Positions 25,582 through 61,937 of a stretch of 64,000 nucleotides of DNA are shown in pieces. Position numbers and translations under genes: made by a program. Each line of letters starts with the position of its first letter. The first letter of the stretch is position 1. Origin of the DNA: a virus; IMG/VR virus record IMGVR_UViG_3300005573_000064, positions 1 to 64,000 of that record; one strand, 5' to 3'. Below the pieces are notes generated by a model. That model worked only from the letters and a program-made list of their open reading frames with translations. It did no database searches and was not told where the DNA came from.

Positions 25582-25606
25582 AATGCACCTCCCCGGCTCT
25601 CGCAAA

Positions 25607-29469: not shown

Positions 29470-29591
29470 AAATCTTTGGCGCTGAACCACCGTCCGGTAG
29501 GGTGGTGCAAGTCGCTATCCCCTTTCTTTGATAAATTTTTAGCTTCTAACATTGCGTGGATTATCACCTTATTTTCTCTGTCACTTGTCAT
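29466..29591 (-). CDS. Small 41-aa protein (absent from the ORF track)
   Basis: GGAGGA RBS; MTSDRENKVIIHAMLEAKNLSKKGDSDLHHPTGRWFSAKDL*; its TGA overlaps the ATG of the glycosyltransferase. Confidence 0.55.
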   Translation of the reverse strand: MTSDRENKVIIHAMLEAKNLSKKGDSDLHHPTGRWFSAKDL

Positions 29592-29593: not shown

Positions 29594-29926
29594 CTAGACT
29601 CCTCCCGCTACTGTCGAACAGGTCCCCAATAACTGTTCGCCTTCGCTGAATGACTCCAGTTTAATCACCCAATTCGCAGCGAAGTTCGTTTTTCTGTTGA
29701 AGCTGAATATCTCCATATTCAAATCCGGTTCGATTTCAATTTCAAAATGAAGTTCTCCGATATCAAGCGCGAACATGAAATCATCGTCAATCGCCACGCA
29801 ATCAGGAACCTCTTTTAAAAAGGGGATGAATGTTTGAAACAATAGAAGCGCGCGCTTTTTAACTTCATCGCTGATATCGGATGCCATTATATATTCCAGC
29901 ATTCTATTTTCTCTGCTGTTTAACAT
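29594..29926 (-). CDS. Hypothetical acidic protein
   Basis: 110-aa ORF overlapping the upstream stop; GGGAG RBS. Confidence 0.7.
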   Translation of the reverse strand: MLNSRENRMLEYIMASDISDEVKKRALLLFQTFIPFLKEVPDCVAIDDDFMFALDIGELHFEIEIEPDLNMEIFSFNRKTNFAANWVIKLESFSEGEQLLGTCSTVAGGV

Positions 29927-30904: not shown

Positions 30905-31861
30905 CTACCAGGGAAAGCCCAGACTGGCGTAGGCGCTGCTTTCCCTCTCCCATATCCCGGCTCTTTTTCTCGCTTCGATAACCGCGCTCGTAAGGTCATC
31001 CACCTTCGTCCCGTGAAGTCCGGACGACATCGAGAGGGCCGTGGTACTGCGGCAGTGGTCGATTCTGGAATCCGTCTGCCTCACGTAATTTAGCTCGACC
31101 CCTATCGAGTTAAAGGGGATGCCCAACTCCTTCAGTTTCTCTCCGAAGGCTATCTCGGTATCGGTCCATATCGCCTCCCCCATTTTAAACCCATAACGAA
31201 GTCCGTACTTGTCCCTTATTGTCGGGACGTGAAGCATCAGACAGGCGTGTCCCGGTACACCCTTGTAATTAATGGGATACGGGGATGTTCTTCTGGCATC
31301 CTCGCGGTTACTCATTGAATAGCCAACCACCGGGGAGTCCTCCGAGGTCAGCGTCATTAATTCCTCGAGTAATGAGCGGCTCATGGGAAACACATCACTG
31401 TGGGAGAAATACAGGTATTGGCTCCGACATATCGATAGGGCCAGGTCCAGCGCCCAACTTACCGGCTGACTGGCGTGAAGAGACGCATGGTGCCTGATAT
31501 AATGTATTTCCGTATCCGCGGTGCGAAGACTCTCAAGCTTCTCGACATTGGACCACATGCTGCCGGTGTCTATTATCATGATGTAAGGCTTGACGGTCTG
31601 ATACCAGTACAGCGGTTGAATAACCTGCACCAGTTCCGGAGAATCCCTGTGAGGTATGCATACGGTGACGTGATAATCCCACGGTTTTCTTGCTATCGAC
31701 CCGGAGAATGTTTCCATCCCGGGTAGTAATTCATCTCTTTTATCAACCTCGGCTTTCGGATAGCCCTCCGGCTTGGGAGAATCCTCCCGCGTTTCCCGCG
31801 GTGCGACCACTCTATCCGGTGTTTTCTTTTTCACATCAGGAACATTAAACCTGAATTGCAT
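30905..31861 (-). CDS. GT2-family (GT-A) glycosyltransferase
   Basis: VTVCIPHRD, IMIIDTGS, YLYFSHSDVF. Confidence 0.85.
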   Translation of the reverse strand: MQFRFNVPDVKKKTPDRVVAPRETREDSPKPEGYPKAEVDKRDELLPGMETFSGSIARKPWDYHVTVCIPHRDSPELVQVIQPLYWYQTVKPYIMIIDTGSMWSNVEKLESLRTADTEIHYIRHHASLHASQPVSWALDLALSICRSQYLYFSHSDVFPMSRSLLEELMTLTSEDSPVVGYSMSNREDARRTSPYPINYKGVPGHACLMLHVPTIRDKYGLRYGFKMGEAIWTDTEIAFGEKLKELGIPFNSIGVELNYVRQTDSRIDHCRSTTALSMSSGLHGTKVDDLTSAVIEARKRAGIWERESSAYASLGFPW

Positions 31862-40200: not shown

Positions 40201-42090
40201 TAGATACTGATGTCTGGGTAACGGAGCGTCCTCGACTTGAAGAGTGGACAGGTGACTGGCGAACTGAACTGTTACCGAGCTTACGGTGGACATGGGGCTT
40301 AAGGCGTAATAGTCCATGTCCACGATGTCGTTTATGGTCTTGGAGGTTGAGGAGTTCAGCGCCTGCCATACATACGTCCAGACTGCGGAGTTCATGGGAA
40401 TCAGGAACCATAAGTTCGAGTACTCCGACTTCGAAGCTCCGTATGTTTGGTTTTTTGCAGCGACTCTTAAAGCCTCCGCTTTGGCCATTTTCTCCTTATC
40501 GCTCAATTGATTCGACAGGGTTATGTCGTTTATGGTGAGAGACGTGGCGGACTTGTACCCGCTCCTTAACGCTGCCGACTCATACACTTGGATATCCGCA
40601 GAGGTCAAGGCGTGCAGAACATTTCTATCGGATTGAAACTGAAGGAGTGCGAAGGGCTGACCATTGGCCATAAGTGTAACCACTGGGGATTTATCCACCC
40701 TCTCCCATTTGTAAACCCCACTCCTAAGGTTTTGAAGGGCCTTAAGAACCACGGACGAATCCCTGTCAAGAACGGTCTGATTTCCTCCCGGACCTAGTTG
40801 CACCTTGTAACTCCCGGATGACAGGTTCTGACTGAGCACCGACTTGGACGGTCCCCTCCCCGGCACCGGAGTGGTTGGAACGTTCTGAGTGGGTAGTTGA
40901 GACTTGTCAATCAGGGCTTGTTTTCTTGGGATTGAAAAGACCAGATTGGAGTTGAGGCCTGAGTCCTTCGAGGAAAGGGGTGTCGGGCATCTCCTGCCTT
41001 TTACCACATCCTCGCACCACACCTTGAATAACGGCCAGCAAAAGCTTTCCTGATAGCTGCTATTCATGGGAAGGTAGCTCTTCCAGTCAAAGGGCTCGGC
41101 ATCGATGGAGACGGCAATGCCCCCGGGTATTCCCTCAAGGGATGAGATCACGACATCCCTTATGGCCAGCGCGTCAATATTCCAGGATGAATTCAAAAAC
41201 ACATTAGTGACGGGAAGAAACGGCATCCTGTTATATTGCTGAAGGATGGGAATCACAACCTCGTTATATTGTCTTTCTCCTATTGAGGAGAACTCTATTT
41301 GCACTCTTTGTATGGTGTTGTAGTCTACACTGTTAAGATCACCCTGGGATCTTAGAATGTCAACGGCCACCACCCCGTTCTCGGTGGTTATCGTTATGGA
41401 TTTGGGAGGGATGAGAAGGGTCACGTAGCCCAGCCTGAAATAGTTCATCGGGTCATAAAATCTAGCATCCTCTATCGGCAAGTCTATGGGAAATATCGCG
41501 GGCTGAGCCACCGGGGCTGCCGGGTCATAGGTCATAGTCTTCGGAGTGGTCTTATTCGAAGGGTGCTTATTGGAGGAGTCCATCAGGCTCTTCGTCTTAG
41601 GTGTTGAAGGTGCGGACTTTGAGTTTGAGCCCAGGTATGTTGGAGGCCATACGCCATCCACCGGGGATATGACCACACGGCCGGGCGCCTCCGTTAGAGG
41701 GGGAACCTGTCCTTTAATTGATTGACCGTAGATAGTGATGGCGTAAACACCGCCCGGAATTAGCGGCTCGGTTCGAGTCGGGGAGGACCCCATGAGCTTG
41801 ATGGTGAATACCGAGGACACCTGGGACGGCTGATTCTCGCTCGGCCACCGTCCCGGTGATTTGGACAATATCGCCTCATATTCGGATTTAGTATCGCACC
41901 ATTCGGATATTGAGCCGGGAGGGGAGGGGGAGTTGGCCGGAGTTGCGAATATCGGAGTTTGCGTGGCGTCATTTGATATAAGCGTAATCGGGCCCGAAGC
42001 GTCAATAACCGACTCCGGTTCCGCTCTGTAGAACACTCCGATTCCGTTATTGGAGCTTTGATAGATGCCGTATATTACAGTGTTAGCCAT
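34201..42090 (-). CDS. Giant tail/baseplate hub protein with lytic transglycosylase-like and M15 peptidase domains
   Basis: 2629 aa; SLT-like LILGVILAESDG...GLMSV...YDPVANVLAG (about 38500-38790); hub-like LRPGVRIHIRVGYGS...FNGTVSEV; C-terminal SGYR...ARPGYSGHGFGMAAD...HIEL (M15). Confidence 0.85.
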   Translation of the reverse strand: MANTVIYGIYQSSNNGIGVFYRAEPESVIDASGPITLISNDATQTPIFATPANSPSPPGSISEWCDTKSEYEAILSKSPGRWPSENQPSQVSSVFTIKLMGSSPTRTEPLIPGGVYAITIYGQSIKGQVPPLTEAPGRVVISPVDGVWPPTYLGSNSKSAPSTPKTKSLMDSSNKHPSNKTTPKTMTYDPAAPVAQPAIFPIDLPIEDARFYDPMNYFRLGYVTLLIPPKSITITTENGVVAVDILRSQGDLNSVDYNTIQRVQIEFSSIGERQYNEVVIPILQQYNRMPFLPVTNVFLNSSWNIDALAIRDVVISSLEGIPGGIAVSIDAEPFDWKSYLPMNSSYQESFCWPLFKVWCEDVVKGRRCPTPLSSKDSGLNSNLVFSIPRKQALIDKSQLPTQNVPTTPVPGRGPSKSVLSQNLSSGSYKVQLGPGGNQTVLDRDSSVVLKALQNLRSGVYKWERVDKSPVVTLMANGQPFALLQFQSDRNVLHALTSADIQVYESAALRSGYKSATSLTINDITLSNQLSDKEKMAKAEALRVAAKNQTYGASKSEYSNLWFLIPMNSAVWTYVWQALNSSTSKTINDIVDMDYYALSPMSTVSSVTVQFASHLSTLQVEDAPLPRHQYLGGGDGFVSIQGILAGERDLELLRAMLDEVRELGRYYRTMEWDIPYPGFFGIKNSLINSLGLLHFIPINFSVSTVDGFPHLYSYQLDIMEYSPTQMRREEFDVMDKLITNWSLSLATGIPQDKLAQVMAENADKPEYLEKVLGNFYRPLTQADPLMQDIHEGSAMKEWRMSLLDARLRMVEMYPDMCLPSKVKLDHWITILRDWAHTGKDPDDPEDRKLLKSMRSVMSVNKHTLENIMMMAPSNDPMGYAEPDFFCVPAVQPTTWASELVDANFGVEVPTEELNRPSAKANSPKGYAHMLLTDSFGIQAIHKAGSHISSSTPTEDSGEAYAQQQLDLSSAYQTILAGKQSSERYSSSHYGNTPVDTEYAERYWGQTLDGLSLLQMEAGRDAPVWNGYPVLGVQTDPSYATSNYNEVIKDHPALASRVNEFLNRKSTPQIYNAVDLDNKIVTPLLHLIKTNPTQWGISQDVANHLDPGLILGVILAESDGGVRSGSGGGGSHKGLMSVSFSQDAPAIARELNQYTGKGPGEPPLGMDSSGPPPDNAYDALRNNNYDPVANVLAGILLIAGKMAAFSNDPWTMQANGVQGYRGINFGAGEMGGAGYTPGVMAFASLWNNVYSKSSPINNPSRTSPSGKKIYEEVISNAGIPKPEAARYLQMLESGQIGLDSIYRYHLCQMETRLFATPKGEKKTSPWNVVLEKYFPGTKKWEPLQGEARLAILPCLPTNIPIYPDNETTTPKSNLVDSSNMHNGYPYPTEPENGNKEWYGYTVYTDITPAAFPDPSKAANIYDYLYSKKPGALNPPAPSTLPMKFRPMFHDFQKKEYIGRLVGAFPSYLVQLVDGGMWVGIERLSDHFYGMSSVISISIVQTRKDPVDVATLAFSNLYNRLNSMAAMIELQKMQDTRTTDTFESWINGIKQFFTSQVTPDLEARREQWAKMLALRPGVRIHIRVGYGSDASQYPVRFNGTVSEVPTASDICEVVALGDGAELVKEASRNDGHWISDPIDSHQVWQNTGLFNFHGIEPRNIIGQLFSPTSSIIETLTHARWMTDNPYGIVDFGNLDFRAYGSYSLGECGVNLYESTQDPNNKSYAAENWYTINGSIAALHGQTLIGIEMESASPWGIAETCRMAVSDFILAVRPFEYRSTLFYGRDWFPYYYKYKYMTENPFQYNVSAPNPQTGSTAAKDYYVDGVDVLQDTDPDYTTLMESKAFSQFHVISSGYNLISSDITASSDNVLTECQSKYIYGGAWGSAMVYADVMHVDDDIYPQVRKGEVIQSGLLSGPGYGWEGLQRAFTWFTPINVVCHAANMYSAMTLRDAVADMYQGYSMIAGDPYMWPWDYVYFMDRGKLMNGMFQVKEVITQLSLETGYITLVSPDCLVSVASGMDTGVWMSLARFGMTVVSARLYLIAIGTILKAFSRWGLESRIVRWITGRPQAIKEAVAGKAQKAFETIAGDPEATPSETGVKPVDDLLNARKTIRDMGQGIKDAINKGADSPTGSKILGLIKKGWEGLSDAAKGIIKSVYRDIERYGLGSEEPRRATTPEGAQANANASTDTNTATSPDTGGGGEAAAPDETILPTEGETAVTQGETAVTQGETAVTQGETAVTEGETAVTEGETAVTQGETAVTQGETAVTEGEKAVTEGIDVGTQVGSDVAEGATGVGIIPLLVQLGALVITSSLGDMIGRYLAAKKCLVIMPLQVNGFEFSAGIEGHLGSVVGDPISLGDAWWASIFSTSYGREEHGIIGEIIPWVMNFVFPGATMQNPLHTNFSSSEDFIKNKLTKPNTDAWNSYMTSLNNRLAASSQGMSNPQSNYDYLFDGGNTSNTSTPSSPAVNNPNMDYSSNKTSSIYRLPVTPGTHPDLADLNPTFATNLSRFIEDMRKQNIIITVTSGYRGWAEQNAIYLSHHENEKVAARPGYSGHGFGMAADLNVSPSSAWSYVHSEARKYNLWFPIASTDKVHIELIPTIAQGFASSVLKTQPNQIGWDTWLATRESQFGR
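35266..35464. repeat. Coding tandem repeat, 9 x 21 bp encoding GE[T/K]AVT[Q/E]
   Basis: Unit ACCTT[C/G]GGTTACAGC[G/A]GTCTC repeated in frame within the hub gene. Confidence 0.97.
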
Positions 42091-45000
42091 TACTTAAGTA
42101 ATCTCCCGAGAATTAGTTTTTCTATCTTGGCGATATCCGCTTTGGCATCGGTGACTTTCACCGAGACGTGACTCTTGACTTTCGCCTGGGGAATATCCTG
42201 AACATTTTTAACCAGGGATGTAATATCTCCGGCCGTTTCGGAGGATACTGAGATGTGATCTTCAACGTGCGGATCCGGGGGCGGACTTACCGGTTGAACG
42301 GCTCCGTATATTGCGGGGGTCCTTGGAATCATGTTATCAAACGCCATCTTGCCCGAGTACTCGGGGCCTGAGGCCAGGCTCGTAATCTGGCGCGTGTCAT
42401 TTCTTATTATAGCCCGTTTCTCGGTCCCCGAGAGAAACACCCTTCGTTCAGCGGGCATATCACTGCGGCCCGATCTCTTGAACGAGGTCAGGATGGTTCT
42501 CACCTCCTGCAGGTTGACGCCTCTCCCGCGCACCTTCCTGGTGGCCGTGTTGTTTCTTAGCCAGTAGTACAGGTCATTCTCCGAAATATTGAAGCGTTCG
42601 AAGACGGCTTTATGCAGAGTCTCAAGAGAAACCCCCATGATTTCGGAATCTCTTCTGGTTGCGGCCAGCCGTATCTCGCCATCTATCGCGGCCTTGATCG
42701 GGTCGACCCTGGACTTGTCCTTATAATCCCTGAGCTTCCTCCGCTGTTCCTCGGTGTTCATCTCCCCGCTTGTTTCCAAATTTTGGTGAGGCGTAAGGCT
42801 TGAATCGCCTAGAACGTTACCCTCGGTATCCTTTGGAAGCATGGCTTTATATGCGTCCAGCAGGGCCTTGTCCACTTCCTCCTCGCTTACTTTAATTTCA
42901 ACTTTTTTTACCAAAAGGTTTGTAGGTTCGATATTGCGAAGCGACTTGCCAAAATGCCGTTCAAGCTCCGAAAAACCAGGAACGTCAAAAGTAGCGGTCA
43001 AAGTATCAATGGATGTTTTCGCCCAGGGACGATACCTGAGTCTGGCTACGAAATCCAAATATCGCTCCTGTTCAAATTCATCCGGCAGATAATCCTCGTG
43101 CACTATCATTTCGGGGTGTGCTGAAGTGGCGGGGTTTATGTCTCTAAGTTTTGACTGGATAAAATATTCATCCTCCTTGCCAAGGAAGCCCTTTATAAGT
43201 TTAGGATATTTTAGGTATGCGCGTTGCTCGGATGCCGATAGCGAACTTAACTTTCGCGCTATCTCCTCCTCCTCCGTTCTACTCGAGACGGGATCGCTCC
43301 TGTACATGTAGTGCTTTTTAAAGAAATCATACAGCTCCAATTCATATAACGTGGTTTTTCCGTTAACCGCTCTGATTCCCTCGTATGCGTAATCGAATAT
43401 CTGTTCGGTGCTAAGAACTATTCCATCATAGGTATGAAAGGCTTTTCTATATAACAGACTTAGCTTCTTATCCGCCACTATATGGGACCTTGGAATATCC
43501 TTGGGAATATCAACAAGTCCCCTATAGTACGAGGCGATACGCTCCTCTTCACTTAAGCCGGTGTATTTTGCGAAGGCGTCCTCTATGCTCTTGCCGGTAT
43601 TGACCGAATCCTGTGTCAGACTAGGAAGAATCTTTTTCCTGTACATTCCGAGCATGTAGTCGTGGTACTCTAGAGACGCCACTCTCGCATTCATTTTCGC
43701 CCCCCACGCTTTTATCTTGCTAGGTCTTTTAACCTTGACTCTCTTGGGTTTCACAAGAGCCTGGGATTGCTCGGTAATCCTGTTCATCGTATTAACATGT
43801 TCGGATAGATCCTTTTCGATGCTGCTATTCCCTAACCTTAAAGCCATCTTGAAGTTACGCATTACAATCTTGAGAGGGTCGGTGACGGAATGCTCCTTGA
43901 ACGTACCCAGGATTCTAGCCCACAATCTGGAGGCCCAGCCCTTCTCACCCACGCCCCAGTGTGAAGTGGCTATGTAATGGGATATCTCTCTGGCTTTATT
44001 AAGAGAATACCTGGCCCCTCTCGCAAGATGGGAGAATAATCTGGCTGCGGGAGATTTAAGAGAGTCAGACCCCATCCTCGCCTGAGGCGAATTTTTCGGA
44101 AAGAGATAATAGTACCTTTTATGGTAGGGATCTTGAATCTGTGCAAACTGTTTGAGAATATGATCGATGTTATACTGTGCGGTGGATTCTCTGTCAAACG
44201 GCCCATCGGTACCTACGCCCCCTTCCAGATATCCTCTTATCCAACTAGGCAGTCTCTTGTAATTTCCGTAAGTTATTGCATACTCCCTTATGGGATGCGC
44301 TTCGGCAAAATTATCCAGTGTTTCAGTATCCACGGCCCCCCAACGGGCGTTCGCCATATCCACCGCGCCATAACCGGGTACTAGTTTTATTTTTATCCAG
44401 TCTCTATTTCTTGGTTCCCATCCCGTTCTGTTTTCAATATCAATGAGGTTGCTCTCAAGCCTGTCGCTGCTAAAAGTCAGCACCACCATAGGGCCTGTGC
44501 CTTTGGGGTAAGCTGCGTGCACTCGATATTTTTTAGGAAGATAGTTGGGATAACAGCAGAGTATTTTGTCAGCTTCAGACATGCCTTTAGCCATATCTGG
44601 CCACATATAGGCCCCCGGCCCGTAATGGTGAATATAAAAGGTTTCAGGCTTGGCTCCCCACGTAAACACGCCATTCCTTCCGCCAATCGGGATGGCGTGG
44701 AACAAGGCGCCTGACATATTATCCCACCTATCGGAATCACCACCGTATTCGCCCTCCTCCCATCCCCTAACCACTTGTCTAAGATCCCTGTCGGAGGAAT
44801 AGTCCGTAAATAGAAAAGCCTGTACCGAGGACCTGGTAACGGTGGGAGACGCCATGCGATTAACCGTCTTGTAATTAAAAGCGCTCCGAGGAGGAATAAA
44901 GCTCGCTATGGCGAAGGCCATGGCTATTGAGGCGAGAATTGTTAGACCCATGCCTCCTTCCAGACTCTTCATGGCGGCTTTCAAGGCATCCACGCGGGAA

Positions 45001-48000
45001 TGCTCCTTGAAGGTGCCCAGGATTCTGGCCCACAATCTGGAGGCCCACCCCTTCTCGCCAACGCTCCAGTGGCTTATGATGTAGCGACCCAGCTGTCTCG
45101 CCTTGTCAAGCGCGTGAGGAAGGAAGCCTTTTCCAAGAACCCTTCTAGCGATGGGGGATATCGAGGCTCTGGTCAGACTGCGAAATCTGCCAGGGCTCCA
45201 GCGCCTTCTAGCGTGGGAGGGCGGAAGCGAAAGCGGGGATAATGTTTCATCCATATTTAGTTGATCAACTTTGGATTCCTCGTACTTTTCTTCGAAGGGA
45301 TTCTTCTCTTCCTCCTTGGAAGGTATTACAGCCTCTCCTCCGATTATCCTATCTATTTCATCCTGGCTAAACACATATCCCGGTTCCTTTGACAGATAGG
45401 CTTTATATAACTCACTTTCCAGCCCCATTGCATTAATGTTTCTAGAAAAATCTTCATCAGCAGCTTCGGGATCGAGATACTTAGCAAAGTAATGGCGAGG
45501 GAGCGTTGCTTCAAAGCCTATGGCTTTGATATAGCCTTTAAGTCTTTTCGTGGCTTTATCTCTGCGACCTCCCACTTTCCTTGCCAATTCGTTAAGCATA
45601 TCATCATTGGATTTACGGATCGGAGGAGTTAGCTCTCCAGCCTGAGCCCTGTAAAACACTCTTCGCATTATACTGCCTTCAGGACCTGGTCCGAATATCT
45701 CGTACCATATGAGGGACATGAACTCGTTGGCTTTTTGCTCCTCCTCGCCACCAGGATGCACATAACTAGACATGGCACTCATGCGAGCTTTCGTTAGTCT
45801 GCCCTTATCTATAAGATTCCCACGAGAAAATTTCCCAATAGCTATACTAAAGTTGAAGGGGGTTTCGCCAGACATATCGATAGGAATCTCGTGTAAAATA
45901 AGGTCTCTGGCCAAGGAGGAATTTGCATATCTGGAGAAGTGAGTGATTGCTCTGACGCCTTCTATAATGTGTTCTTTATGAAATTTGACCCTCGCCCTTT
46001 GGAGCTCGTCTTGTGGTATTGACCGAAATGTTCTTGTCTGATCCAGCTTAAGATACTCAATGAAGGACAGCGCGTGGCCAAACTCATGAGCCATCGATGC
46101 CGCGATCAGCTCCTCGTCAGACAAATTCCCGAAAGATTTGTGCTGAGATCTCATTAGATCGAAAACGTCACGATTTTCGGCCCATGCGCTCCTATCGTGA
46201 GGTAGCTGAATAAGTCCGTAGTCACATATAGGTGCAAAAGCTGGCTCGGAGAAGGGATACGCACTTATATCCACAAAAGCCAACACCGGGTACTTACGAA
46301 TTATGTGCTTGTACACTCTACTGGCCAGGGGAAGGTCCTTTAGAATTATAAGATTAGTGGTTACGGTGCTATGCTGTCGCAGGTTGACACTCCCGCTTAG
46401 CCAATGCATAAAGTCTTCATCCGAAACCTCGGGCGCAGTCTGGGAGCCGGACCACCCCATCCGATCCAAAGCGTACGCTGCGGCACGCAGCGGCTCAAGT
46501 GTTGAATGCTCCTTGAACGTCCCTAGAATTCTAGCCCATAGTCTGGAGGCCCAGCCCTTCTCACCTACGCCCCAATGGCTTATGACATAGCGACCCAACT
46601 GTCTCGCCTTGTCAAGCGCGTGAGGAATGAAGCCTTTTCCAAGAACCCTTCTATCGATGGGGGATATCGAGGCTCCGGTCAGACTGCGAAATCTGCCAAG
46701 GCTCCAGCGCCTTCTAGCGCGGGAGGAGGAAAGTGAAAGCGGTGGTAATGTTCTAGCCATATTTATAGGTATGGAAGGTAGCGTATTCAGTATTACCAAT
46801 ACTTTTTCCAGGCCGTACTTATCCGATAGCGCCTTAAGTTGGTCACCGGCCTCCAAGGAATTCCTATTTATGCCTCTAATTTCCTCGGCTATCTTTCTTA
46901 CTTCATCCTCACCGTATGCGGAGAAAACATCGTTAAGGTTTGACCTTTGGTACCCTTCGATACGTAACTCGCTCTCACTCTTCTCCATTAGGGGTATTGG
47001 AATAACTCCTCCGGTTATTCTGCTTATTTCATTGGGACTAAATACGAATCCCTCCCCTTTCGCCAAATAGGTTTCGTATAACTTGTTATGCGCTCTTAAA
47101 TTAATGGATAACTGCCTGGGGTTCCTCTCTAAATAACGACCAAAGTATGCATTAAAGTACTCGTCAGGAGTCATTACCCCATAGCCCATGGCTTTGATAA
47201 AGCCTTCAAGTCTTTCCGTGGCTTTGTCTCTGCGACCTCCCGCTGTCCTTGCCAATTCGTTAAACACATCCTCGTTGGATCTGCGGGCCCGAGGAGTTAG
47301 CTTTCCGGCCTGGACCATATGGAATATTCTTCGCATTATACTGCCTTCAGGACCTGGTCCGAACATCTCGTACCACGTGCGGGACATGAACTCGTTGGCT
47401 TTTTGCTCCTCCTCGCCACCAGGATGCACATGAAGACTTATGGCATCCATGCGAGCCTTCGTTAGTCTGTCCTGGTCTATAAGACCCCACAGAGAAACTT
47501 TAGAAACAAAGTTACTCAGATTAAAGGAGAGTCCGTTACGCCTATTGATAGGAATCTCGTATAAAATAAGGTCTTTGGCAAAGGGGGAATTTGCATACCT
47601 GGAGAAGTGAGTAACTATTCTGGTGTTTTCTATAATGTTTTCTATTGCAAATTTGTGCGATACTCTTAGGAACTCGTTTCGTAACGTTGAGTCAAACGAC
47701 TCATATGACGCATTCGGATCAAGCTTAAGGTGCTCCAAGGCGGACAGCGCATGACCAAACTCATGAGCCATCGCTGTCGCGACCACCTCCTCGTCAGACA
47801 AATTCCCGAAAAATTTGTGCTGAGCTCTAATTAGATCGAAAAACTCCCTGTACTTAGGCCACTCGCTCCTATCGTGAGGTAAATACATAATTAGAGAGTA
47901 ATACTGAAATTCAAACCCCGGCTCATCGATGGGGAACCGACCTATATCCACATAACTTAAAATCGGGTACTTACTAATTAAGTGCTTGTACACTCTACTT

Positions 48001-51000: not shown

Positions 51001-54000
51001 GCTGCGGCACGCAGCGGCTCAAGTGACGAATGCTCCTTGAATGTACCTAGTAGCGTAGCCAGCAGTCGGGAGGCCGGCCCTTTCTCTCCAACGCCCCAGT
51101 GCTTGACAAGATAGGATGAAAAGACTCTCGCTTTCCGTAGCGCCCATCCCGTTCTTATATCGGAAGGAATTGCGGCCACGACTCCCGGGCCTCCCTTTCT
51201 CTTAAAGAGATTAAGAAAGCTTTTTAGCGGATTCCACGCGAGTTTTCCTATCCCGCCAGTATACTCGACAGCCCATTGACTAGACCTATAGTAAACTCCG
51301 AGTGAGTCCAGAATCTTCTTTTCCATCTGCACAAGGTCAGTCTCGTTCCTTGTAAGAAAGGCGTAATGGGATGTTATGGATCTTGGATTCTCAAGGGATT
51401 TTTTAAAGGCTCTGATAACTCTGCCATAATCGCCACTCTGTACGCTCTCCAAGCCCTTCTGTATTCTTCTCTCTATTAAGTCTTTATTTGTAAGTGTTAT
51501 ATTGCCTCTGTAAGCCATGGACATTAGAGTCTCGTAGGCAAACGCATCGGCATAAACTTCGGCCGGATTTTCTCTGTAGATAATGTTTCCGTATAGGAGT
51601 TTAAGATACGGATTGACGGATGACCTGCGGAACCTTAACTTGCTTGCCGCCCTTCTCCTCCATACTCGGTTTCTAATATCCTCAAACGCATCCTCGCTGA
51701 ATACGCCCATTTCCGAGCTGGCTATCTTGTTTCCAACATCCAGCCATCTGTGAGCATGCCCCATCTCATGAGCGAAAATGAACTTGGATAAGACCTCAGG
51801 ATCATTGGGATCAAACCCGGCACGCCCAACGAAATACCTTAAGGGAATCTGGCTGGGATCTGTGAAACTAGCCAGGGACCCTCCGGGGGGGAACACCACC
51901 TTATAGTCGCTAGGCGATTCGAAATTGCCAAAGAACATACCGGGAATTCCCGCTATAAGGAATTCGACATCAAAGTGGATGGGTATGGTTGACAGCCTGG
52001 GATCGAGCGCGATGGCTTCCTCGTACACATCCTGCAGATAATCAGGCAGGGATTGCAGCGTTTGCTGGTAGGCTCTCCTTTGAGTCTCTGTCAGTTCGGG
52101 TTTTGCGTAATCGGACCTGGTGAGCTTTCCTTCGTATATCCTTTTGGCCACGCCAAGAGCCGCTATTCGGGCCGCTGCGGCCACGGAATGGGATTTGTAC
52201 GTGCCAAGAGCGTTAGCCTGAGCCCGGGAGTGGGGACCTTTCTCTCCGACTCCCGCGTGGGAGTAGGCGATTTGGGCGGAGTAATCGTCCTTTCTCATAT
52301 GCCTGTCAATCCACCTTCCCACCGGAACCAGTATTCCCTTCATTACGTAGAAGGACGCGATATCGATTACAGGGTCTATTATCTCCTGAATAGGCAATGA
52401 CACGCTGCGCAAGGTGTCTCTTCCCAAGGCCTGCTCGATATTGCCGGTTATTTTGCCAGAGAGGCTTTGAAGAAGACTGACCCCTCTTTTAACGCTGGCG
52501 CTTTTCTCGGAAGCCCACGCGCTTCCGAAGTCGGAGCCAAGACTCCCATAGAACTCGGCCATCCCGGTTAGAAGCTTTGCCGCCCCCTCCCTTACCGAAG
52601 GATAGCGAACGAGCTGATGACTAAGGTACTGGGAGACGGGATAGGAAATGGCCTCCTTGGCCACCCAAGGCAGGGATGAGACAAACTGCCCCAGTGTTTG
52701 GTCGCCTGCCGCGTAGCCTAAAAGCGAACGTATGGCCTTTCCGGTTCCGAAGGATATGAAGAGTCGGGGGTAGCTTCCGGAGACATGAGCGAGCCCGGCT
52801 ATGATTTTACCGGCCGTAGGCTCGTCCTCCGACAATTTGGCCGCCTGCAGCCACCCTCGTCTGAACAGAGAAGCCGCATGCAAAAGCGTCCAGTGGCCGG
52901 CCAAAAACATAGCGCCTTTCATAAGAGGATTATTTGAGTAATTGTCGTCCTCCACCGGGGAGCCGGGGCCGCTGCCTAGATTGCCGACCCAGTTGGCCTC
53001 GTCCCAGCTGTACGCTCTGTTATTGGTTGCCGACCAGCGCTGCGCGATTCGGTCCTCGGCCTCCCGTCTCGCCTCGTCCCTTCTCTTCTCAGATTGATTT
53101 ATGACATGATATAATCCGTAAGCGGCCCCTATCACCCCGAGAGCCGCAAGTCCGTAGCCTACGGGCTTTTTATTCTTGTCGAACCAGTCAAACAGGGAAT
53201 CCCACATCGAACCGGTGGGGGGCTCGCCCCCTCCTCCGATCCCGCCTCCGGCTTCGGGCGGCACACCGGTACCTCCGCCTGCACTCCCGGCCCCGGCCAC
53301 TCCTCCGGTGCTTCCTTCGGCCGCGCGTACGCTCTCGCTTTCCCTTAGTTTCCTTTGCCGTCTGCGTTCTCGCGCTTCATCCCGCTGTTTCAGCAGCTTA
53401 TCCAGTTTCTGCTTTCTAGCCTTTTCCCACTGTTCGTTCTGACGCCTCCATTCCTCCTCTTGCTGACGCTGTCGCTCCTCCTTCGCTTGTTGCTCCCGTA
53501 TCCTAGTTTGCTCCTTCGCTTTCGCCTCTTCCTCTATGCGCTGCAGGATCCTTTCGCTTCGGTTTCTTTCGATCTCCTGTCTGGCCTCCCACTCCGACAT
53601 GGCCTTCTCGTACTCACGCTTGTACTCCGGGTCGGAAGCCAGCCTCTCCTCGTGAATCTTTCTTTGCTCCTCTAACCGCTCTCGGAACGACCTGTCCTGC
53701 TCCTCCTGTAATTTTCTGAACTCCTCAAGCCTCTCGAATGTTGAAGGGGATTGTGGGGACTCGGAGTTCAGCTTCGCGTAAATCTCCGCCCACCCGGTAG
53801 CACGCTTGGAGGTCCTTCTCCACATCGCCTCCACCTTACCGGGAATAGGAGTTGAGGCGCCATGCTTTTTCTTCCACCATTCCGCCATCCGGTTGACATA
53901 TGTTTCCTCGGGCTCGATAAGACCGGTCATGCGGCCTGTTAGAAGAGAGTGGTGGAACGCTATGGTCCTTGGATTGCGCATGGACCTTTCAAAGGCCTCC

Positions 54001-56078
54001 ATGGCCTCATCATATCCACCTTGGTGAATGATATCCATAGCGGACTCTATCTTCTTCTTCAGGAGGGTCCCACTGGCGAGCGGCAAATCGCCACTGTAAG
54101 CGAGGGACATTAGGACCTCATAAGCAAACTTGTCCGCATAAACCTCGGCAGGGTTCTCCCTGTAGAGGATGTTTCCGTATATGTTTCTGAGGTACGGGTT
54201 GGAGGATAACGTCTTGATCTCCTCGCTCTCTTTTCCCCACACCGTATTTATAATGTCCTCGAACGCCTTCCCGCTAAATACGTTTTTCTCCGCGTGGTAC
54301 TCCTTTTTCCCTATATCCAGCAGTCTGTGTGCGTGTCCCATTTCATGAGTGAAAATAAACCTGGATATGGTTTCGTCATTAGGATCAAGTCCGGCACGTT
54401 CAATGAGACGTTTCAGGGGAAGTATGCGAGGGTCATAAATACTCGCCAGACGGTCCCCCTTTCTTCCTAGCGGATATACCAACCTGTAATTCTCTATGGA
54501 GTTGGTCTTGCTGACGAATATACCAGGGATATTTTTCTTGGCCAATTCAGGATCGAATACCACAGGTATGGACACCAGTCTTGGATCTAACGCTATGGCC
54601 CTCGCGTACGCGCCTTTCAGATACTTAGGCAAGGACTGCAGCGTTCTCTGATACAACTCTTCCTGCTCCGCTGTCAGTACCGGTCTTGTGTAACCGCTCG
54701 CGGTTAGCTTGCCTTCATATATCCTTTTGGCCACGCCAAGCGCGGCTATTCGGGCCGCTGCGGCCACGGAATGGGACTTGTACGTGCCAAGCGCGTCCGC
54801 CTGAGCCCGGGAGTAAGGGCCTTTCTCCCCGACTCCCGCATGGGAGTAGGCGTAAGCCTGCGATGCCGAGCTGGAGCCGCTCATAAGCCTTTTCTTTCTC
54901 TCGGCATCGCCTCTTCTTCCGGATAAGATATGATACAACCCGTAGCCCGCTCCGAGAATTCCCGCAGCGGCAAGGCCGTAACCTAAAAGACTTTTTACTT
55001 CGCCAAGTCCGCTGGAACTCAGGCTGCGCGCCAAACCGGAGGCCTGATTGTCGTCCTCGCTTTCGGCCTCAACCCCAAGCGTGCTTTTCACCGCCTTTTC
55101 CACTACGGTTTTCGCTTCAGCCGCTCGCGATTCTTCAGCCACCCTTTCAGTCGCTGTCGGAGCTTCGAATGCGCTTGCGCTTTTTGCCACAGGTTCACCC
55201 GCAGGCCTCGCTTCGGACCGTTCCAATCGACTTGAAAAATCACCCGATTTCTCCGTCTCTTTTCCGGGACTTACCTCCTCAGGCTTACCTACGGACTCAC
55301 GCACATACGGTTCAAGTTCGGAGATGCGTTCTTGGAGATTCGCCATCATTTTGAGACGGACGTCATCCAGAACCTGATCACCAAAATTCAGATTGCCGAG
55401 TTCCCTGTGGGATTGCTCCATCCATCCCTGAAACTCGGATACCCGTCTTCTTAGCTCCTCGTTCCCCGGCTCACCGTTATACTGTCGTACCCACTTGAGA
55501 AACTCAGATGTTCGGACGCCAAGCTCTCCCACAACTTGGGCGAAGAGAACGGACGGACGCTCCCGACCGGGGCCCAGACTGCGGGACACCTCTTCGGCTC
55601 CCTTCCGGGCGGCCTTTAACGGATCAACCTGTGAGTGGGACTTGTACGTACCCAGCTCCTCGGCCTGAGCTCTGGAGTAAGGGCCTTTTTCTCCAACCCC
55701 TGCATGAGAGTAGGCGTAGGCCTGAGACGCCAGACCGGAGCTTTCGCTAATATCAGTAAACAGACTCCCTCTCACCGGGACGGGCACCGAATCCAACCCT
55801 CCGCTCCATACTCTATCGTCAGGAATCAGGAATGGGGAAAGAGCCAGCCTGTTTCTTTCCGGTTCGTAAAAGTGGGAGCCAAGACTTTTGGAACCAAGTC
55901 CTGAAACTAGAAAAGGCGCAGGAGCCCCGCTGTCATCGGGGGATGCCGAACGCATCGGGGAGGCCACATTAAAGGCGCCAAGATGCGCCCCCGAAAGTTG
56001 CGAACCTGTCTCAAGGTACGGCCTTGTCTCCCAATATACGCCTCGTCCTGCTATGCCTCTATCATTAACAATTGACAT
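42090..56078 (-). CDS. 4662-aa modular (polyvalent-like) protein: nine copies of a 25-aa motif, six HEXXH metallopeptidase domains, TM helices
   Basis: HEMGH x2 and HEFGH x4, each with a downstream E-x2-A-[DN]-x-[FY] helix; repeated HxGVGEKG...LGT[FY]KxHS; stop overlaps the start of the hub gene (TAATG). Confidence 0.9.
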   Translation of the reverse strand: MSIVNDRGIAGRGVYWETRPYLETGSQLSGAHLGAFNVASPMRSASPDDSGAPAPFLVSGLGSKSLGSHFYEPERNRLALSPFLIPDDRVWSGGLDSVPVPVRGSLFTDISESSGLASQAYAYSHAGVGEKGPYSRAQAEELGTYKSHSQVDPLKAARKGAEEVSRSLGPGRERPSVLFAQVVGELGVRTSEFLKWVRQYNGEPGNEELRRRVSEFQGWMEQSHRELGNLNFGDQVLDDVRLKMMANLQERISELEPYVRESVGKPEEVSPGKETEKSGDFSSRLERSEARPAGEPVAKSASAFEAPTATERVAEESRAAEAKTVVEKAVKSTLGVEAESEDDNQASGLARSLSSSGLGEVKSLLGYGLAAAGILGAGYGLYHILSGRRGDAERKKRLMSGSSSASQAYAYSHAGVGEKGPYSRAQADALGTYKSHSVAAAARIAALGVAKRIYEGKLTASGYTRPVLTAEQEELYQRTLQSLPKYLKGAYARAIALDPRLVSIPVVFDPELAKKNIPGIFVSKTNSIENYRLVYPLGRKGDRLASIYDPRILPLKRLIERAGLDPNDETISRFIFTHEMGHAHRLLDIGKKEYHAEKNVFSGKAFEDIINTVWGKESEEIKTLSSNPYLRNIYGNILYRENPAEVYADKFAYEVLMSLAYSGDLPLASGTLLKKKIESAMDIIHQGGYDEAMEAFERSMRNPRTIAFHHSLLTGRMTGLIEPEETYVNRMAEWWKKKHGASTPIPGKVEAMWRRTSKRATGWAEIYAKLNSESPQSPSTFERLEEFRKLQEEQDRSFRERLEEQRKIHEERLASDPEYKREYEKAMSEWEARQEIERNRSERILQRIEEEAKAKEQTRIREQQAKEERQRQQEEEWRRQNEQWEKARKQKLDKLLKQRDEARERRRQRKLRESESVRAAEGSTGGVAGAGSAGGGTGVPPEAGGGIGGGGEPPTGSMWDSLFDWFDKNKKPVGYGLAALGVIGAAYGLYHVINQSEKRRDEARREAEDRIAQRWSATNNRAYSWDEANWVGNLGSGPGSPVEDDNYSNNPLMKGAMFLAGHWTLLHAASLFRRGWLQAAKLSEDEPTAGKIIAGLAHVSGSYPRLFISFGTGKAIRSLLGYAAGDQTLGQFVSSLPWVAKEAISYPVSQYLSHQLVRYPSVREGAAKLLTGMAEFYGSLGSDFGSAWASEKSASVKRGVSLLQSLSGKITGNIEQALGRDTLRSVSLPIQEIIDPVIDIASFYVMKGILVPVGRWIDRHMRKDDYSAQIAYSHAGVGEKGPHSRAQANALGTYKSHSVAAAARIAALGVAKRIYEGKLTRSDYAKPELTETQRRAYQQTLQSLPDYLQDVYEEAIALDPRLSTIPIHFDVEFLIAGIPGMFFGNFESPSDYKVVFPPGGSLASFTDPSQIPLRYFVGRAGFDPNDPEVLSKFIFAHEMGHAHRWLDVGNKIASSEMGVFSEDAFEDIRNRVWRRRAASKLRFRRSSVNPYLKLLYGNIIYRENPAEVYADAFAYETLMSMAYRGNITLTNKDLIERRIQKGLESVQSGDYGRVIRAFKKSLENPRSITSHYAFLTRNETDLVQMEKKILDSLGVYYRSSQWAVEYTGGIGKLAWNPLKSFLNLFKRKGGPGVVAAIPSDIRTGWALRKARVFSSYLVKHWGVGEKGPASRLLATLLGTFKEHSSLEPLRAAAYAATQMGWSGSQTAPEVSDEAFLSSLSGIINWRQRETIIENLNLLRNLPLVGRMYKHIITENPILAFVKISADTSRPPSFNAGSEYGTINILSMASGRNKDLLLRILRTQNKALGAVSDEEMIAAAMAHEFGHALDAYRTFGVNQSLSLRYLRGIKKALKVKADWTTPITESIRSAMMESRYAKSSLHRDLILSQLPTRARTSAVGGLEQFYSSRFLDTAKLTEARIDAWNRWMHTTQEDEQIANEYMFLMMYKLRGPGPEGSVMRRMFDMAQAGKLTPPIRMSGDERLARTLEKARRLRKESDRKLRKFFEAHKLNITPEGFVNIVSEGHLPPGAEEAASEAYDLYLKQNSERGFDSGMAPTAAKTVMADAEPNGMPSKGITWSSALLMPPSRERRRWSLGRFRSLTGASISPIARRVLGKGFLPHALDKARQLGRYVISHWGVGEKGWASRLWARILGTFKEHSSLEPLRAAVYALTQMGFNFQPAPEVSDEAFISSLSGIIDERQRDTIIENLNLLKDLNLVRSMYKHVILRSPTLAFVKISTDTSQSPRFDPNSEYGIVHLFSIVRGDVRDKLLKATKMQYKALGKLSDEETAAVVLAHEFGHALDAYKTFGVNRRVSLSNAMSMQVSKTERMYWTTPITESIRRAITGSRYAKSSLYRDLILSQLPTWEDQSAIDRLNTFRSAKFLDTTKLTEARIYAWNRWMHTTQEDEQIANEYMFRMWYKLRGPGPEGSVMRRMFDMAQAGKLTPPIRMSGDERLARTLEKARRLQRESDLRLRKYFEAQGLNTTPEEYIFLVKEGLLSAQAEEDAFKAYDLYLKQNFGPGPDPGMAPNAVKTVMANAEPNGMPSNGIIGSSAFLMPPSRERRRWSLGRFRSLTGASISPIARRVLGKGFIPHALDKARQLGRYVISHWGVGEKGWASRLWARILGTFKEHSSLEPLRAAAYALDRMGWSGSQTAPKISDEDFMHWLSGAVNEGQRDTIIKNLDILKDLPLLSRVYKHLISKYPILSYVDIGRFPIDEPGFEFQYYSLIMYLPHDRSEWPKYREFFDLIRAQHKFFGNLSDEEVVATAMAHEFGHALSALEHLKLDPNASYESFDSTLRNEFLRVSHKFAIENIIENTRIVTHFSRYANSPFAKDLILYEIPINRRNGLSFNLSNFVSKVSLWGLIDQDRLTKARMDAISLHVHPGGEEEQKANEFMSRTWYEMFGPGPEGSIMRRIFHMVQAGKLTPRARRSNEDVFNELARTAGGRRDKATERLEGFIKAMGYGVMTPDEYFNAYFGRYLERNPRQLSINLRAHNKLYETYLAKGEGFVFSPNEISRITGGVIPIPLMEKSESELRIEGYQRSNLNDVFSAYGEDEVRKIAEEIRGINRNSLEAGDQLKALSDKYGLEKVLVILNTLPSIPINMARTLPPLSLSSSRARRRWSLGRFRSLTGASISPIDRRVLGKGFIPHALDKARQLGRYVISHWGVGEKGWASRLWARILGTFKEHSTLEPLRAAAYALDRMGWSGSQTAPEVSDEDFMHWLSGSVNLRQHSTVTTNLIILKDLPLASRVYKHIIRKYPVLAFVDISAYPFSEPAFAPICDYGLIQLPHDRSAWAENRDVFDLMRSQHKSFGNLSDEELIAASMAHEFGHALSFIEYLKLDQTRTFRSIPQDELQRARVKFHKEHIIEGVRAITHFSRYANSSLARDLILHEIPIDMSGETPFNFSIAIGKFSRGNLIDKGRLTKARMSAMSSYVHPGGEEEQKANEFMSLIWYEIFGPGPEGSIMRRVFYRAQAGELTPPIRKSNDDMLNELARKVGGRRDKATKRLKGYIKAIGFEATLPRHYFAKYLDPEAADEDFSRNINAMGLESELYKAYLSKEPGYVFSQDEIDRIIGGEAVIPSKEEEKNPFEEKYEESKVDQLNMDETLSPLSLPPSHARRRWSPGRFRSLTRASISPIARRVLGKGFLPHALDKARQLGRYIISHWSVGEKGWASRLWARILGTFKEHSRVDALKAAMKSLEGGMGLTILASIAMAFAIASFIPPRSAFNYKTVNRMASPTVTRSSVQAFLFTDYSSDRDLRQVVRGWEEGEYGGDSDRWDNMSGALFHAIPIGGRNGVFTWGAKPETFYIHHYGPGAYMWPDMAKGMSEADKILCCYPNYLPKKYRVHAAYPKGTGPMVVLTFSSDRLESNLIDIENRTGWEPRNRDWIKIKLVPGYGAVDMANARWGAVDTETLDNFAEAHPIREYAITYGNYKRLPSWIRGYLEGGVGTDGPFDRESTAQYNIDHILKQFAQIQDPYHKRYYYLFPKNSPQARMGSDSLKSPAARLFSHLARGARYSLNKAREISHYIATSHWGVGEKGWASRLWARILGTFKEHSVTDPLKIVMRNFKMALRLGNSSIEKDLSEHVNTMNRITEQSQALVKPKRVKVKRPSKIKAWGAKMNARVASLEYHDYMLGMYRKKILPSLTQDSVNTGKSIEDAFAKYTGLSEEERIASYYRGLVDIPKDIPRSHIVADKKLSLLYRKAFHTYDGIVLSTEQIFDYAYEGIRAVNGKTTLYELELYDFFKKHYMYRSDPVSSRTEEEEIARKLSSLSASEQRAYLKYPKLIKGFLGKEDEYFIQSKLRDINPATSAHPEMIVHEDYLPDEFEQERYLDFVARLRYRPWAKTSIDTLTATFDVPGFSELERHFGKSLRNIEPTNLLVKKVEIKVSEEEVDKALLDAYKAMLPKDTEGNVLGDSSLTPHQNLETSGEMNTEEQRRKLRDYKDKSRVDPIKAAIDGEIRLAATRRDSEIMGVSLETLHKAVFERFNISENDLYYWLRNNTATRKVRGRGVNLQEVRTILTSFKRSGRSDMPAERRVFLSGTEKRAIIRNDTRQITSLASGPEYSGKMAFDNMIPRTPAIYGAVQPVSPPPDPHVEDHISVSSETAGDITSLVKNVQDIPQAKVKSHVSVKVTDAKADIAKIEKLILGRLLK
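43887..55706 (-). repeat. Dispersed in-frame 75-bp motif repeats (9 copies) plus longer linker repeats
   Basis: Copies at 55632-55706, 54768-54842, 52185-52259, 51027-51101, 49602-49676, 48180-48254, 46503-46577, 44997-45071, 43887-43961. Confidence 0.95.
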
Positions 56079-61849: not shown

Positions 61850-61873
61850 GAGGGCCTCCGAGGACTTGTTTCT

Positions 61874-61884
61874 TATATTATAGC
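61874..61884 (-). promoter_or_regulatory. -10 promoter-like motif GCTATAATATA
   Basis: Between a terminator and the RBS of the 1.9-kaa gene. Confidence 0.55.
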
Positions 61885-61890
61885 CCCCGA

Positions 61891-61929
61891 CAAAAAAAGA
61901 TCCTGAGTTTATTATGCGTAAACTCAGGA
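61891..61929 (-). terminator. Intrinsic terminator
   Basis: TCCTGAGTTTA-7 nt loop-TAAACTCAGGA followed by TCTTTTTTT on the minus strand. Confidence 0.8.
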
Positions 61930-61937
61930 CCAAATAC

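Follow-up and report, generated by a model that had tools for sequence, protein, structure and literature searches.

A strongly conserved peptide marks the module boundaries of a 4662-residue tail-module protein in an uncultured hot-spring phage

Polyvalent phage proteins carry 2 to 15 domains on one chain and are proposed to be delivered with the DNA and processed proteolytically (Iyer et al. 2017, PMC5512222). The zincin MPTase is their commonest domain, present in one to five copies and itself proposed as the processor of the chain (PMC5512222). In Bacillus phage 0305phi8-36, gp147 was assigned as a hyperplastic homolog of the T4 hub protein gp27 and the preceding gp146 as the tape measure, in a study that also pointed out fusions of exchangeable domains to conserved structural arrays (Hardies et al. 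2007, PMC2147016). Here, we analysed the first 64,000 nucleotides (hereafter the window) of the virus record IMGVR_UViG_3300005573_000064, a single 117,564-bp contig from an uncultured hot-spring phage, which is linear according to IMG/VR and 65% complete as estimated by CheckV. The window contains an open reading frame (ORF) of 4662 codons whose product is punctuated nine times by the same short peptide, which we call the tag. Among known kinds this ORF comes closest to the polyvalent protein, and among known loci to the hub region of 0305phi8-36.

Like the polyvalent proteins described in PMC5512222, the ORF and its relatives combine unrelated effector-type domains in one chain, with putative zincin-like domains dominant and multiple and an ADP-ribosyltransferase among the cargo. 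The variety met in the ORF itself comprises two zincin groups (of two and four modules), a paralog of a free-standing gene, a hydrophobic domain and two further modules, its six zincins comparing with the one to five reported in the main text of PMC5512222. Unlike those proteins, the tag family displays the same peptide of about 40 amino acids at every boundary (the word “linker” is absent from the main text of PMC5512222), and the giant ORF is the expansion of a small tail-module protein with fixed N- and C-terminal domains. With 0305phi8-36, the genome shares homologs of the hub protein gp147 and of the giant protein gp145 in the same gene order, but 0305phi8-36 has no gene of the tag family and no tag in gp145-150, and it is gp146 that precedes its hub gene. 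Papers that mention both polyvalent proteins and tape measures (PMC7824862 among them) do not appear to concern such a tag, supplements being outside the scope of the search. As far as the searches reach, three features are apparently new: a strongly conserved junction peptide at every boundary, a graded series running from one to nine tags, and placement between the tape-measure and hub genes.

More distant parallels come from other systems that mark carried proteins with short peptides. The capsid targeting sequence of T4 consists of about 10 residues at the N-terminus of internal proteins and of the ADP-ribosyltransferase Alt, and is cut after Glu by the phage protease in the head. The tag resembles it as a short peptide on carried proteins with an invariant Gly-Glu, but differs in being about 40 residues long, internal, repeated within one chain and encoded in the tail module. 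The giant secreted bacterial toxins of the multifunctional autoprocessing repeats-in-toxin (MARTX) type are, like the giant ORF, long chains of exchangeable modules; they contain their own cysteine protease domain, which cuts at short Leu sites after delivery, whereas no such domain was found in the ORF by Pfam and the papain-family peptidase of the phage is a separate gene. Finally, polymorphic toxins feature a conserved peptide at the border between a constant part and exchangeable C-terminal cargo, namely VENN in CdiA and DPxGL in Rhs, the latter being also a cleavage site. Those proteins have one border each, whereas the tag family has up to nine internal borders and conserved domains at both ends.

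The pattern H.[GS]VGEKG..SR.....LGT[FY]K.HS matches nine times in the ORF, at residues 125, 413, 1274, 1660, 2135, 2609, 3168, 3670 and 4040, with spacings of 288, 861, 386, 475, 474, 559, 502 and 370 residues and 623 residues beyond the last copy. These are exactly the copies listed in an earlier note made from the DNA letters. When all six reading frames of the complete 117,564-bp genome were searched with a hidden Markov model (HMM) of the nine copies, every copy was recovered (domain E-values of 1e-18 to 1e-27) and there was no other significant match. The 25-residue motif of that note does recur nine times as a core, but the conserved unit extends to about 40 residues, with 5 more before the core and about 10 after it. 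A short aromatic lead (A-Y-x) is followed by block 1 (H-x-G-[VPA]-G-E-K-G-P-x-S-R), a helix ending in L-G-T-[YF], and block 2 (S-x-V-D-x-L-K-A), which is missing from copies 2 and 3. A helix had been reported after every copy; the [DE][PA]L[KR] helix indeed trails seven of the nine, but copies 2 and 3 are trailed by VAAAARIAAL instead. The decayed tenth copy proved to be a genuine half tag by comparison with relatives, although it reached only an E-value of 3.8 in the genome search.

Across the family, 29 full tags were collected from 14 proteins. The Gly-Glu pair, two further Gly and the Ser are invariant (29/29), while the His is kept in 28 and the Arg in 27. A test of metal binding by the two His of the motif had been suggested; the second His is kept in only 13 of the 29 tags, which makes a conserved two-His metal site unlikely. 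The net charge of the tags in the ORF ranges from 0 to +2 and is +1 or +2 in eight of the nine. The earlier note recognised no named family for the motif, and none matches it: the nine tags matched none in Pfam at E ≤ 10 apart from one chance GYF_2 row, the tag profile matched no PDB sequence at E ≤ 10, and a literature text search for “gvgekgp”, paper supplements being outside its scope, found nothing.

Between the tags, six modules (2 to 7) each contain one HExxH motif and three (1, 8 and 9) resemble other modules only in their first 30-45 residues, i.e. in the tag, matching the initial count of six modules with zinc peptidases and three with unrelated cargo. BLAST comparisons divide the zincins into a paralogous pair (modules 2 and 3, with A-type tags) and a second group (modules 4 to 7, 43-72% identical). 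Module 8 has a hydrophobic segment (residues 3710-3728) and, leader included, is 56% identical over 288 residues (E = 1e-115) to a free-standing, untagged gene of 307 amino acids at 69300..70223 (-) of the genome. Coordinates of all parts are collected in Table 1.

Table 1. Parts of the tag protein and adjoining genes, in window positions
Feature	Position	Strand	Basis or remark
Giant tag-protein ORF (P0001), 4662 aa	42090..56078	(-)	open for 4662 codons
N-terminal conserved domain, aa 1-119	55722..56078	(-)	block also seen in relatives
Tag 1, aa 120-159, A-type	55602..55721	(-)	pattern + HMM
Module 1 cargo, aa 160-407, ending in glycine-zipper hydrophobic segment (nt 54921-54983)	54858..55601	(-)	no Pfam family
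Tag 2, aa 408-447, A-type	54738..54857	(-)	pattern + HMM
Module 2 zincin, A-type, HEMGH at aa 578	53679..54767	(-)	HExxH, module BLAST
Hydrophobic helical domain of family core, aa 1083-1268	52275..52832	(-)	aligns with orthologue
Tag 3, aa 1269-1308, A-type	52155..52274	(-)	pattern + HMM
Module 3 zincin, HEMGH at aa 1437	51114..52184	(-)	module 2 paralogue, 53% over 333 aligned aa
Tag 4, aa 1655-1694, B-type	50997..51116	(-)	pattern + HMM
Module 4 zincin, B-type, HEFGH at aa 1822	49824..51026	(-)	HExxH, module BLAST
Tag 5, aa 2130-2169	49572..49691	(-)	pattern + HMM
Module 5 zincin, HEFGH at aa 2296	48399..49601	(-)	HExxH, module BLAST, AlphaFold
Tag 6, aa 2604-2643	48150..48269	(-)	pattern + HMM
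Module 6 zincin, HEFGH at aa 2772	46749..48179	(-)	HExxH, module BLAST
Tag 7, aa 3163-3202	46473..46592	(-)	pattern + HMM
Module 7 zincin, HEFGH at aa 3331	45219..46502	(-)	HExxH, module BLAST
Tag 8, aa 3665-3704	44967..45086	(-)	pattern + HMM
Module 8 cargo, aa 3715-4002, hydrophobic leader and domain	44073..44936	(-)	paralogue of free gene
Tag 9, aa 4035-4074	43857..43976	(-)	pattern + HMM
Module 9 cargo, aa 4075-4448	42735..43856	(-)	only tag in common with other modules
Half tag, aa 4449-4465, block 2 only, block 1 decayed, leads into C-domain	42684..42734	(-)	remnants in relatives
C-terminal conserved domain, aa 4466-4662	42093..42683	(-)	common to all complete relatives
Basic 47-codon (47-aa) linkers before tags 5, 6, 7 and 8	49677..49817, 48255-48395, 46578-46718, 45072-45212	(-)	near-identical DNA
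Upstream neighbour, 1946 aa, tape-measure-sized	56093..61933	(-)	assignment by position and size only
Downstream neighbour, 2629 aa, hub protein with C-terminal VanY (Pfam)	34201..42090	(-)	homologue of 0305phi8-36 gp147

The nine-tag profile was searched against 1.84 billion representative proteins, giving 18 matches at E ≤ 1e-3. Among the 17 other than the query, 11 were fetched, of which ten are relatives of 310-1318 amino acids and one (P0013) is an unrelated repeat protein; P0008, P0011, P0012, P0015, P0016 and P0018, which match short parts of the profile many times, were left out of the count. A search with a family profile added P0019 (792 aa) and P0020 (580 aa), and a metagenome contig yielded the full 1063-residue form of P0009. 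The expected recurrence in giant phage proteins did not materialise, the giant ORF being the only giant member. All complete members resemble the giant ORF in having a block at the N-terminus, one or more tags and, at the C-terminus, a domain of about 200 residues, and the general plan can be written N-domain - tag - [module - tag]n - C-domain around a core of N-domain - tag - (hydrophobic helical domain - tag) - C-domain. P0007, P0014 and P0017 are of the simple N-tag-C form, while P0003, P0005, P0006 and P0020 include the hydrophobic domain and a second tag. P0019 adds one zincin with a third tag, and the protein of locus L006 two zincins; an HExxH module also occurs in P0004. In P0002, the module between tags 2 and 3 ends in an ADPrib_exo_Tox domain (PF03496; E = 2.9e-7, 30.5 bits for a cut-off of 23.4). 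Each extra module comes with one more tag: the smallest members have no extra module, others have one or two and the giant ORF has eight, and the tags number one to three per relative against nine here. The C-domain is always entered through a tag or half tag, P0002 and P0020 having remnants comparable to the half tag of the giant ORF. The motif is thus separable and recurs beside varied cargo (zincins, an ADP-ribosyltransferase, the hydrophobic domain), as the earlier note had predicted, one module even having an untagged, free-standing counterpart. The family is a small, unnamed group of tail-module proteins of uncultured contractile-tailed phages distantly related to 0305phi8-36.

The family is narrowly distributed. 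Searches by tblastn with module 5, P0020 and the 1946-residue neighbour found no match in 50,697 GenBank phage records, and the family alignment none in 185,579 prokaryote genomes, with just one metagenome contig found. The nine-tag alignment found no relative in IMG/VR, where the family is rare (two loci). Moreover, no tag was found outside the tag-protein gene in the two genomes searched whole, namely that of the giant ORF and that of a 122-kb relative (locus L001). The tag, never met there on stand-alone proteins, is an internal junction element and not a general N-terminal address.

The 122-kb relative clarifies how the giant ORF arose. Its genome and ours are collinear over the whole stretch between the head genes and the baseplate, with sheath and tube about 60% identical. 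The relative encodes, in order, proteins of 321, 2604, 580 (the tag protein, P0020) and 2783 residues followed by small genes including one of 190; the counterparts in our genome are 314, 1946, 4662, 2629 and 177 residues, respectively. BLAST aligns P0020 with the giant ORF in three blocks: residues 3-142 with ORF residues 2-185 (N-domain, E = 2e-13), 139-353 with 1083-1299 (hydrophobic domain, E = 2e-33) and 338-575 with 4442-4660 (C-domain, E = 3e-33). Since the blocks are collinear, the extra modules were inserted at two places, modules 1-2 after tag 1 and modules 3-9 after the tag that follows the hydrophobic domain. We have little doubt about this architecture and about the orthology of the giant ORF within the family, as judged from the sequences. 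The expandable magazine proposed earlier is therefore supported as an architecture, but it belongs to the tail module and not to capsid loading.

An important question concerns whether the tag is kept as a peptide or as DNA. Nei-Gojobori counts on four B-type units gave dN/dS ratios (non-synonymous over synonymous substitution rates) of 0-0.09 for the tag and 0.45-0.64 for the cargo. Tags differ from one another by 5-12 synonymous and 0-1 non-synonymous changes, and a recount of copies 5 and 6 returned the 7.0 synonymous and 0 non-synonymous changes reported before. No part of the family is more conserved than the tag, and strong purifying selection acts on each of its copies, while the cargo evolves several times faster. 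Ratios this low indicate that the tags are as old as the modules and that each copy was kept separately as a peptide, in line with the initial proposal of selection on the peptide; on these codon counts, a purely DNA-level role is excluded. Unequal crossing-over between tags would multiply them automatically, as expected if the repeats were recombination joints with no role in the protein, but joints alone do not account for selection on the peptide. This explanation, together with its companion in which the ORF is a tape measure and the motif its repeat (weighed below), is to our mind highly improbable. The six fast-evolving zincins (dN/dS of about 0.5) point to a possible arms race with host targets.

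The linkers that precede tags 5-8 show the opposite pattern. Strongly basic (net charge +9 to +11), they have a dS of 0.09-0.27 compared with 0.37-2.9 for the adjoining tags, which show essentially no amino-acid change; pairs of linkers differ at 2-7.5 synonymous positions over about 35 synonymous sites, compared with 5-12 in the 25-codon tags, and the abrupt shift in dS is located exactly at the start of the tag. No RNA structure that could explain the DNA identity was found in these linkers (z-scores of -1.26 to +0.37). Recent gene conversion confined to the linker is perhaps the simplest reading.

In each of the six zincin modules, whether A- or B-type, the HExxH motif lies 161-165 residues past the start of the tag; in P0019 and in both modules of the L006 protein, it lies about 153-158 residues past a tag. 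These distances suggest that tag and zincin are one inherited unit, which fits cutting of the chain in cis but also fits a tag that began as an N-terminal element (a pro-segment or first helices) of one zincin family and was carried to other modules by recombination. We consider such an origin very unlikely as an explanation of the tag, given that eight of the 14 family proteins are tagged without having an HExxH motif, that tags 1, 8 and 9 head non-zincin modules, that a tag or half tag precedes the C-domain in every member and that the tags of non-zincin modules are equally conserved. Moreover, the tag is not packed onto the zincin core in the AlphaFold model, which is of low confidence.

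Structure prediction was applied to two constructs, both on shallow alignments. For the 580-residue ortholog (alignment of ten sequences), the hydrophobic domain was modelled as a helical bundle with a predicted local distance difference test (pLDDT) of 70-87, and both tags below 50. For module 5 with its flanking tags (four sequences; mean pLDDT 55.7), an alpha/beta-plus-helix core surrounds the HExxH motif (60-86) and the tags, at about 45-50, are drawn as helix - Gly loop - helix - helix. In these models, the tag is not part of any confidently folded domain. Fold searches at E ≤ 0.001 were empty for the ortholog model and, with Foldseek, for the module 5 model. VIA-align returned weak zincin rows for the latter (Z of 5.5-6.7, with no chain at Z ≥ 8), the best being lethal factor (1yqy_A, Z 6.7, root mean square deviation 4.7, 138 aligned residues) and the others M1 aminopeptidases, Wss1 and oligoendopeptidase F (Z of 5.5-6.2), while Pfam recognised just 26-residue stretches around the HExxH motifs (M48, M43); with rows this weak, we call the cargo zincin-like. 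The ImmA/IrrE family (M78) was considered and set aside, being absent from Pfam scans of the whole ORF at E ≤ 0.1 and of eight pieces (seven of the nine modules and an N-terminal stretch) at E ≤ 1, a result that leaves room for remote homology. Profile searches of the PDB found nothing real for the B-type zincin and only summed matches of a hairpin to designed repeat proteins for the A-type, and the ESM Atlas offered nothing usable on either P0020 or the free 307-residue gene.

That hairpin, which resembles a tetratricopeptide repeat (TPR), follows the A-type zincin core (53679-54767 (-), profile positions 252-279 of alignment A5); its matches to designed consensus TPR proteins sum to a whole-sequence E-value of 4e-16, and no single stretch passes. 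Further along, the module 2 zincin is followed by a coil rich in Glu, Arg and Lys and a Gly-rich stretch (residues ~800-960), then by the second of two glycine-zipper-like segments (nt 53097-53159). The segment GYGLAA.G..GA.YGLYH occurs at residue 366, about 27 residues before tag 2, and at residue 974, about 280 residues before tag 3.

The helix - HxGVGEKG loop - helix layout of the AlphaFold models recalls the GhG hairpin pattern of helix-hairpin-helix (HhH) motifs, and the gene occupies the same position between tape-measure and hub genes as N of phage Mu. The tags might then be clamps whose Gly-x-Gly loop binds the DNA backbone, and the chain a pilot protein on the leading DNA end. We regard this as very improbable: the Pfam family HHH (PF00633) has no match in the whole genome at E ≤ 10 but was found in 14 of 14 control genomes, the tags have neither a Pfam family nor a PDB match at that threshold save the GYF_2 row already mentioned, and the tag loop is one residue longer than the HhH pattern.

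The position of the gene is informative in its own right. Paralogous sheath and tube genes lie upstream and gp25-like and J-like baseplate proteins downstream, and a 1990-residue ORF at 63268..69240 of the genome is homologous to gp145 of 0305phi8-36. The 1946-residue neighbour is 35% identical over 1275 residues to the 2604-residue neighbour of the ortholog, and has no family match and no match in cultured phages. Synteny and the hub homology thus show the tag-protein gene to be an additional one in a contractile-tail module, with a tape-measure-sized gene on one side and the hub gene on the other, gene context being covered for four family loci (L001, L002, L006 and the giant-ORF genome). 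The slot directly upstream of the hub gene is where 0305phi8-36 has its 2537-residue tape-measure candidate gp146, as would be expected if the ORF were the tape measure. However, lengths among relatives with collinear tail modules and sheath and tube about 60% identical run from 310 to 4662 residues, the two collinear genomes alone differing eightfold (580 and 4662); the chain holds globular alpha/beta zincin modules; no Pfam or PHROG tape-measure family matches it; it has no similarity to gp146, which has no tag; and the relatives retain a separate neighbour of 2604-2810 residues. The eightfold change in length, the globular modules and the lack of a tape-measure match together argue that the ORF is not itself the ruler.

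We propose that the product of the ORF is probably an ejected effector carrier, i.e. a tail-borne polyvalent protein. The chain would sit in the lumen of the tail or hub, exit first on contraction, ahead of or with the DNA, and deliver to the host a membrane-active domain together with effectors, namely zincins in the giant ORF and an ADP-ribosyltransferase in one relative. Carriage in the tail or hub lumen is likelier than capsid loading because the gene is in the tail module beside the hub gene. The tag would be an element required at each module boundary, most likely a processing site where a phage protease, a host protease or the cargo zincins would cut the modules apart. Cleavage is the reading that we rank first for the tag, tentatively, for several reasons. 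The need for a tag at every junction is polyprotein-like; cutting at tags would leave the essential N, hydrophobic and C parts unchanged by an insertion between two tags, which makes insertions harmless; the counterpart of module 8 is a separate protein with its own leader; and a processing role has been proposed for zincins in chains of this kind.

Several points weigh against this proposal. The phage is uncultured and known from its sequence alone, from which cleavage is inferred, and the tail-lumen location rests on gene order. Conservation over about 35-40 residues in two blocks goes far beyond usual protease sites and is more like that of a binding peptide. Eight of the 14 family proteins have tags but no HExxH motif, and no other HExxH protein was found in the minus-strand ORFs of the first 100 kb of this genome or in a 60-kb sample from the relative, so that self-processing by zincins cannot be the general mechanism. 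The smallest members carry the tag without any cargo to release. Finally, no single public contig bridges the module order across the near-identical linkers. Two hot-spring metagenome runs, each belonging to a different study, contain contigs that match the ORF at ≥ 99% identity with no indels or joints, and one of these runs may be the source sample: 25 of 26 pieces at ≥ 99% with 30 of 30 bins covered in run X1, and 29 of 29 pieces with 26 of 30 bins in run X2. Since the public contigs break at repeats and none spans all the tags, the order of the modules rests on the original assembly. No RNA data holding this stretch are listed among the public runs.

The extent of conservation would be better explained if the tag were an uncut docking peptide, folding as it contacts some repetitive surface in the particle (the tube lumen, the tape-measure protein, the hub or the capsid wall) and pinning its module, the chain being packed and released in order. 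Some 40 conserved residues in two blocks, predicted as loop-helix-turn-helix yet disordered alone, are typical of peptides that fold on binding; tags and pre-tag linkers are basic (+6 to +11 for the linkers of B-type copies), and selection acts on every copy. The helix-turn-helix of the P22 scaffolding protein, the cargo-loading peptides of encapsulins and the N-terminal packing signals of the Photorhabdus virulence cassette (PVC) are precedents. On the other hand, the modules are already covalently joined to conserved N and C domains, so that an address on each seems redundant; the tape-measure-sized neighbour, which also has to be placed in the tube, has no tag; and the regions before A-type tags are not basic (net charges of -3, +4 and -1). 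Docking, if somewhat doubtful, is nearly as likely as cleavage.

Candidate proteases other than the zincins are also encoded in the genome. A papain-family peptidase (Pfam Peptidase_C1) with an intact Cys/His/Asn signature, at 24162-24932 (-), adjoins a GH25 muramidase (24943-25635 (-)) just past the baseplate J-like gene; in the 122-kb relative, a peptidase 41% identical to it lies between two tube genes. Both genomes thus keep it among their tail genes, though not in the same position, and it is a candidate for the protease. A complex prediction of this peptidase with the tag, run without controls, gave a score of 0.08 (mark 0.32), which counts neither for nor against such a role. A candidate head protease is weakly recognised at 84256-85875 of the genome (E = 2.7e-4).

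Other observations concern the surrounding tail genes. Between the tube/chaperone genes and the gp145-like gene lie the free 307-residue gene (also at 7301-8224 of L003) and a 508-residue Ser/Gly-rich ORF with a hydrophobic leader (70817-72343 (-) of the genome; 8818-10344 of L003), both absent from the collinear 122-kb relative. Three tube-like paralogs follow the sheath gene (74007-74801, 73255-73920 and 72346-73245 (-)), and an acidic protein of 188 residues (70260-70826) is, by its position alone, a likely tail assembly chaperone. Three glycosyltransferase-like genes (27106-29490, 29920-30588 and 30905-31861 (-)) are found between the hub and baseplate genes: the first encodes 794 residues and also has endonuclease/terminase-like PHROG matches, the second encodes a 222-residue protein with a DXD sugar-binding region (Pfam Gly_transf_sug, Caps_synth, TcdA_TcdB family) and the third has a weak GT2 match. 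The tape-measure-sized neighbours share a conserved C-terminal block (56096-56335 (-) of the window; L001 9698-9937; L002 9505-9744; L006 1746-1985). A C-terminal anchor common to these neighbours and the tag family, seen by eye, was rejected at an hhalign probability of 0.6%. The 313-residue protein upstream of the hub gene in Moorella phage MTATph1 was likewise rejected as a member of the tag family; encoded after a transposase gene, it resembles by eye the C-terminal block of the tape-measure-sized neighbours; if it is such a piece, a tape-measure gene may have been split there by the insertion.

Only for a few head-internal systems is it understood how phages load the proteins that accompany their DNA and set them free. 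Here, a tail-module protein has grown from about 330 to 4662 residues by the addition of modules that are always bounded by one strongly selected peptide, which illustrates in a concrete case how a polyvalent effector chain is assembled and enlarged. Natural variants with zero, one, two and eight extra modules make the tag a defined, short and testable element for the loading or release of modules. One could go further and see in the tag a self-sufficient, portable loading-and-release signal for the contractile-tail lumen, such that proteins spliced between two tags would be carried and freed in the host, although we think this rather unlikely. If true, nature would have provided in this gene an evolvable magazine for delivering proteins into bacteria, its tag might be reused to load chosen proteins into phage tails, and it would offer a handle for studying contractile-tail delivery in laboratory phage-host pairs.

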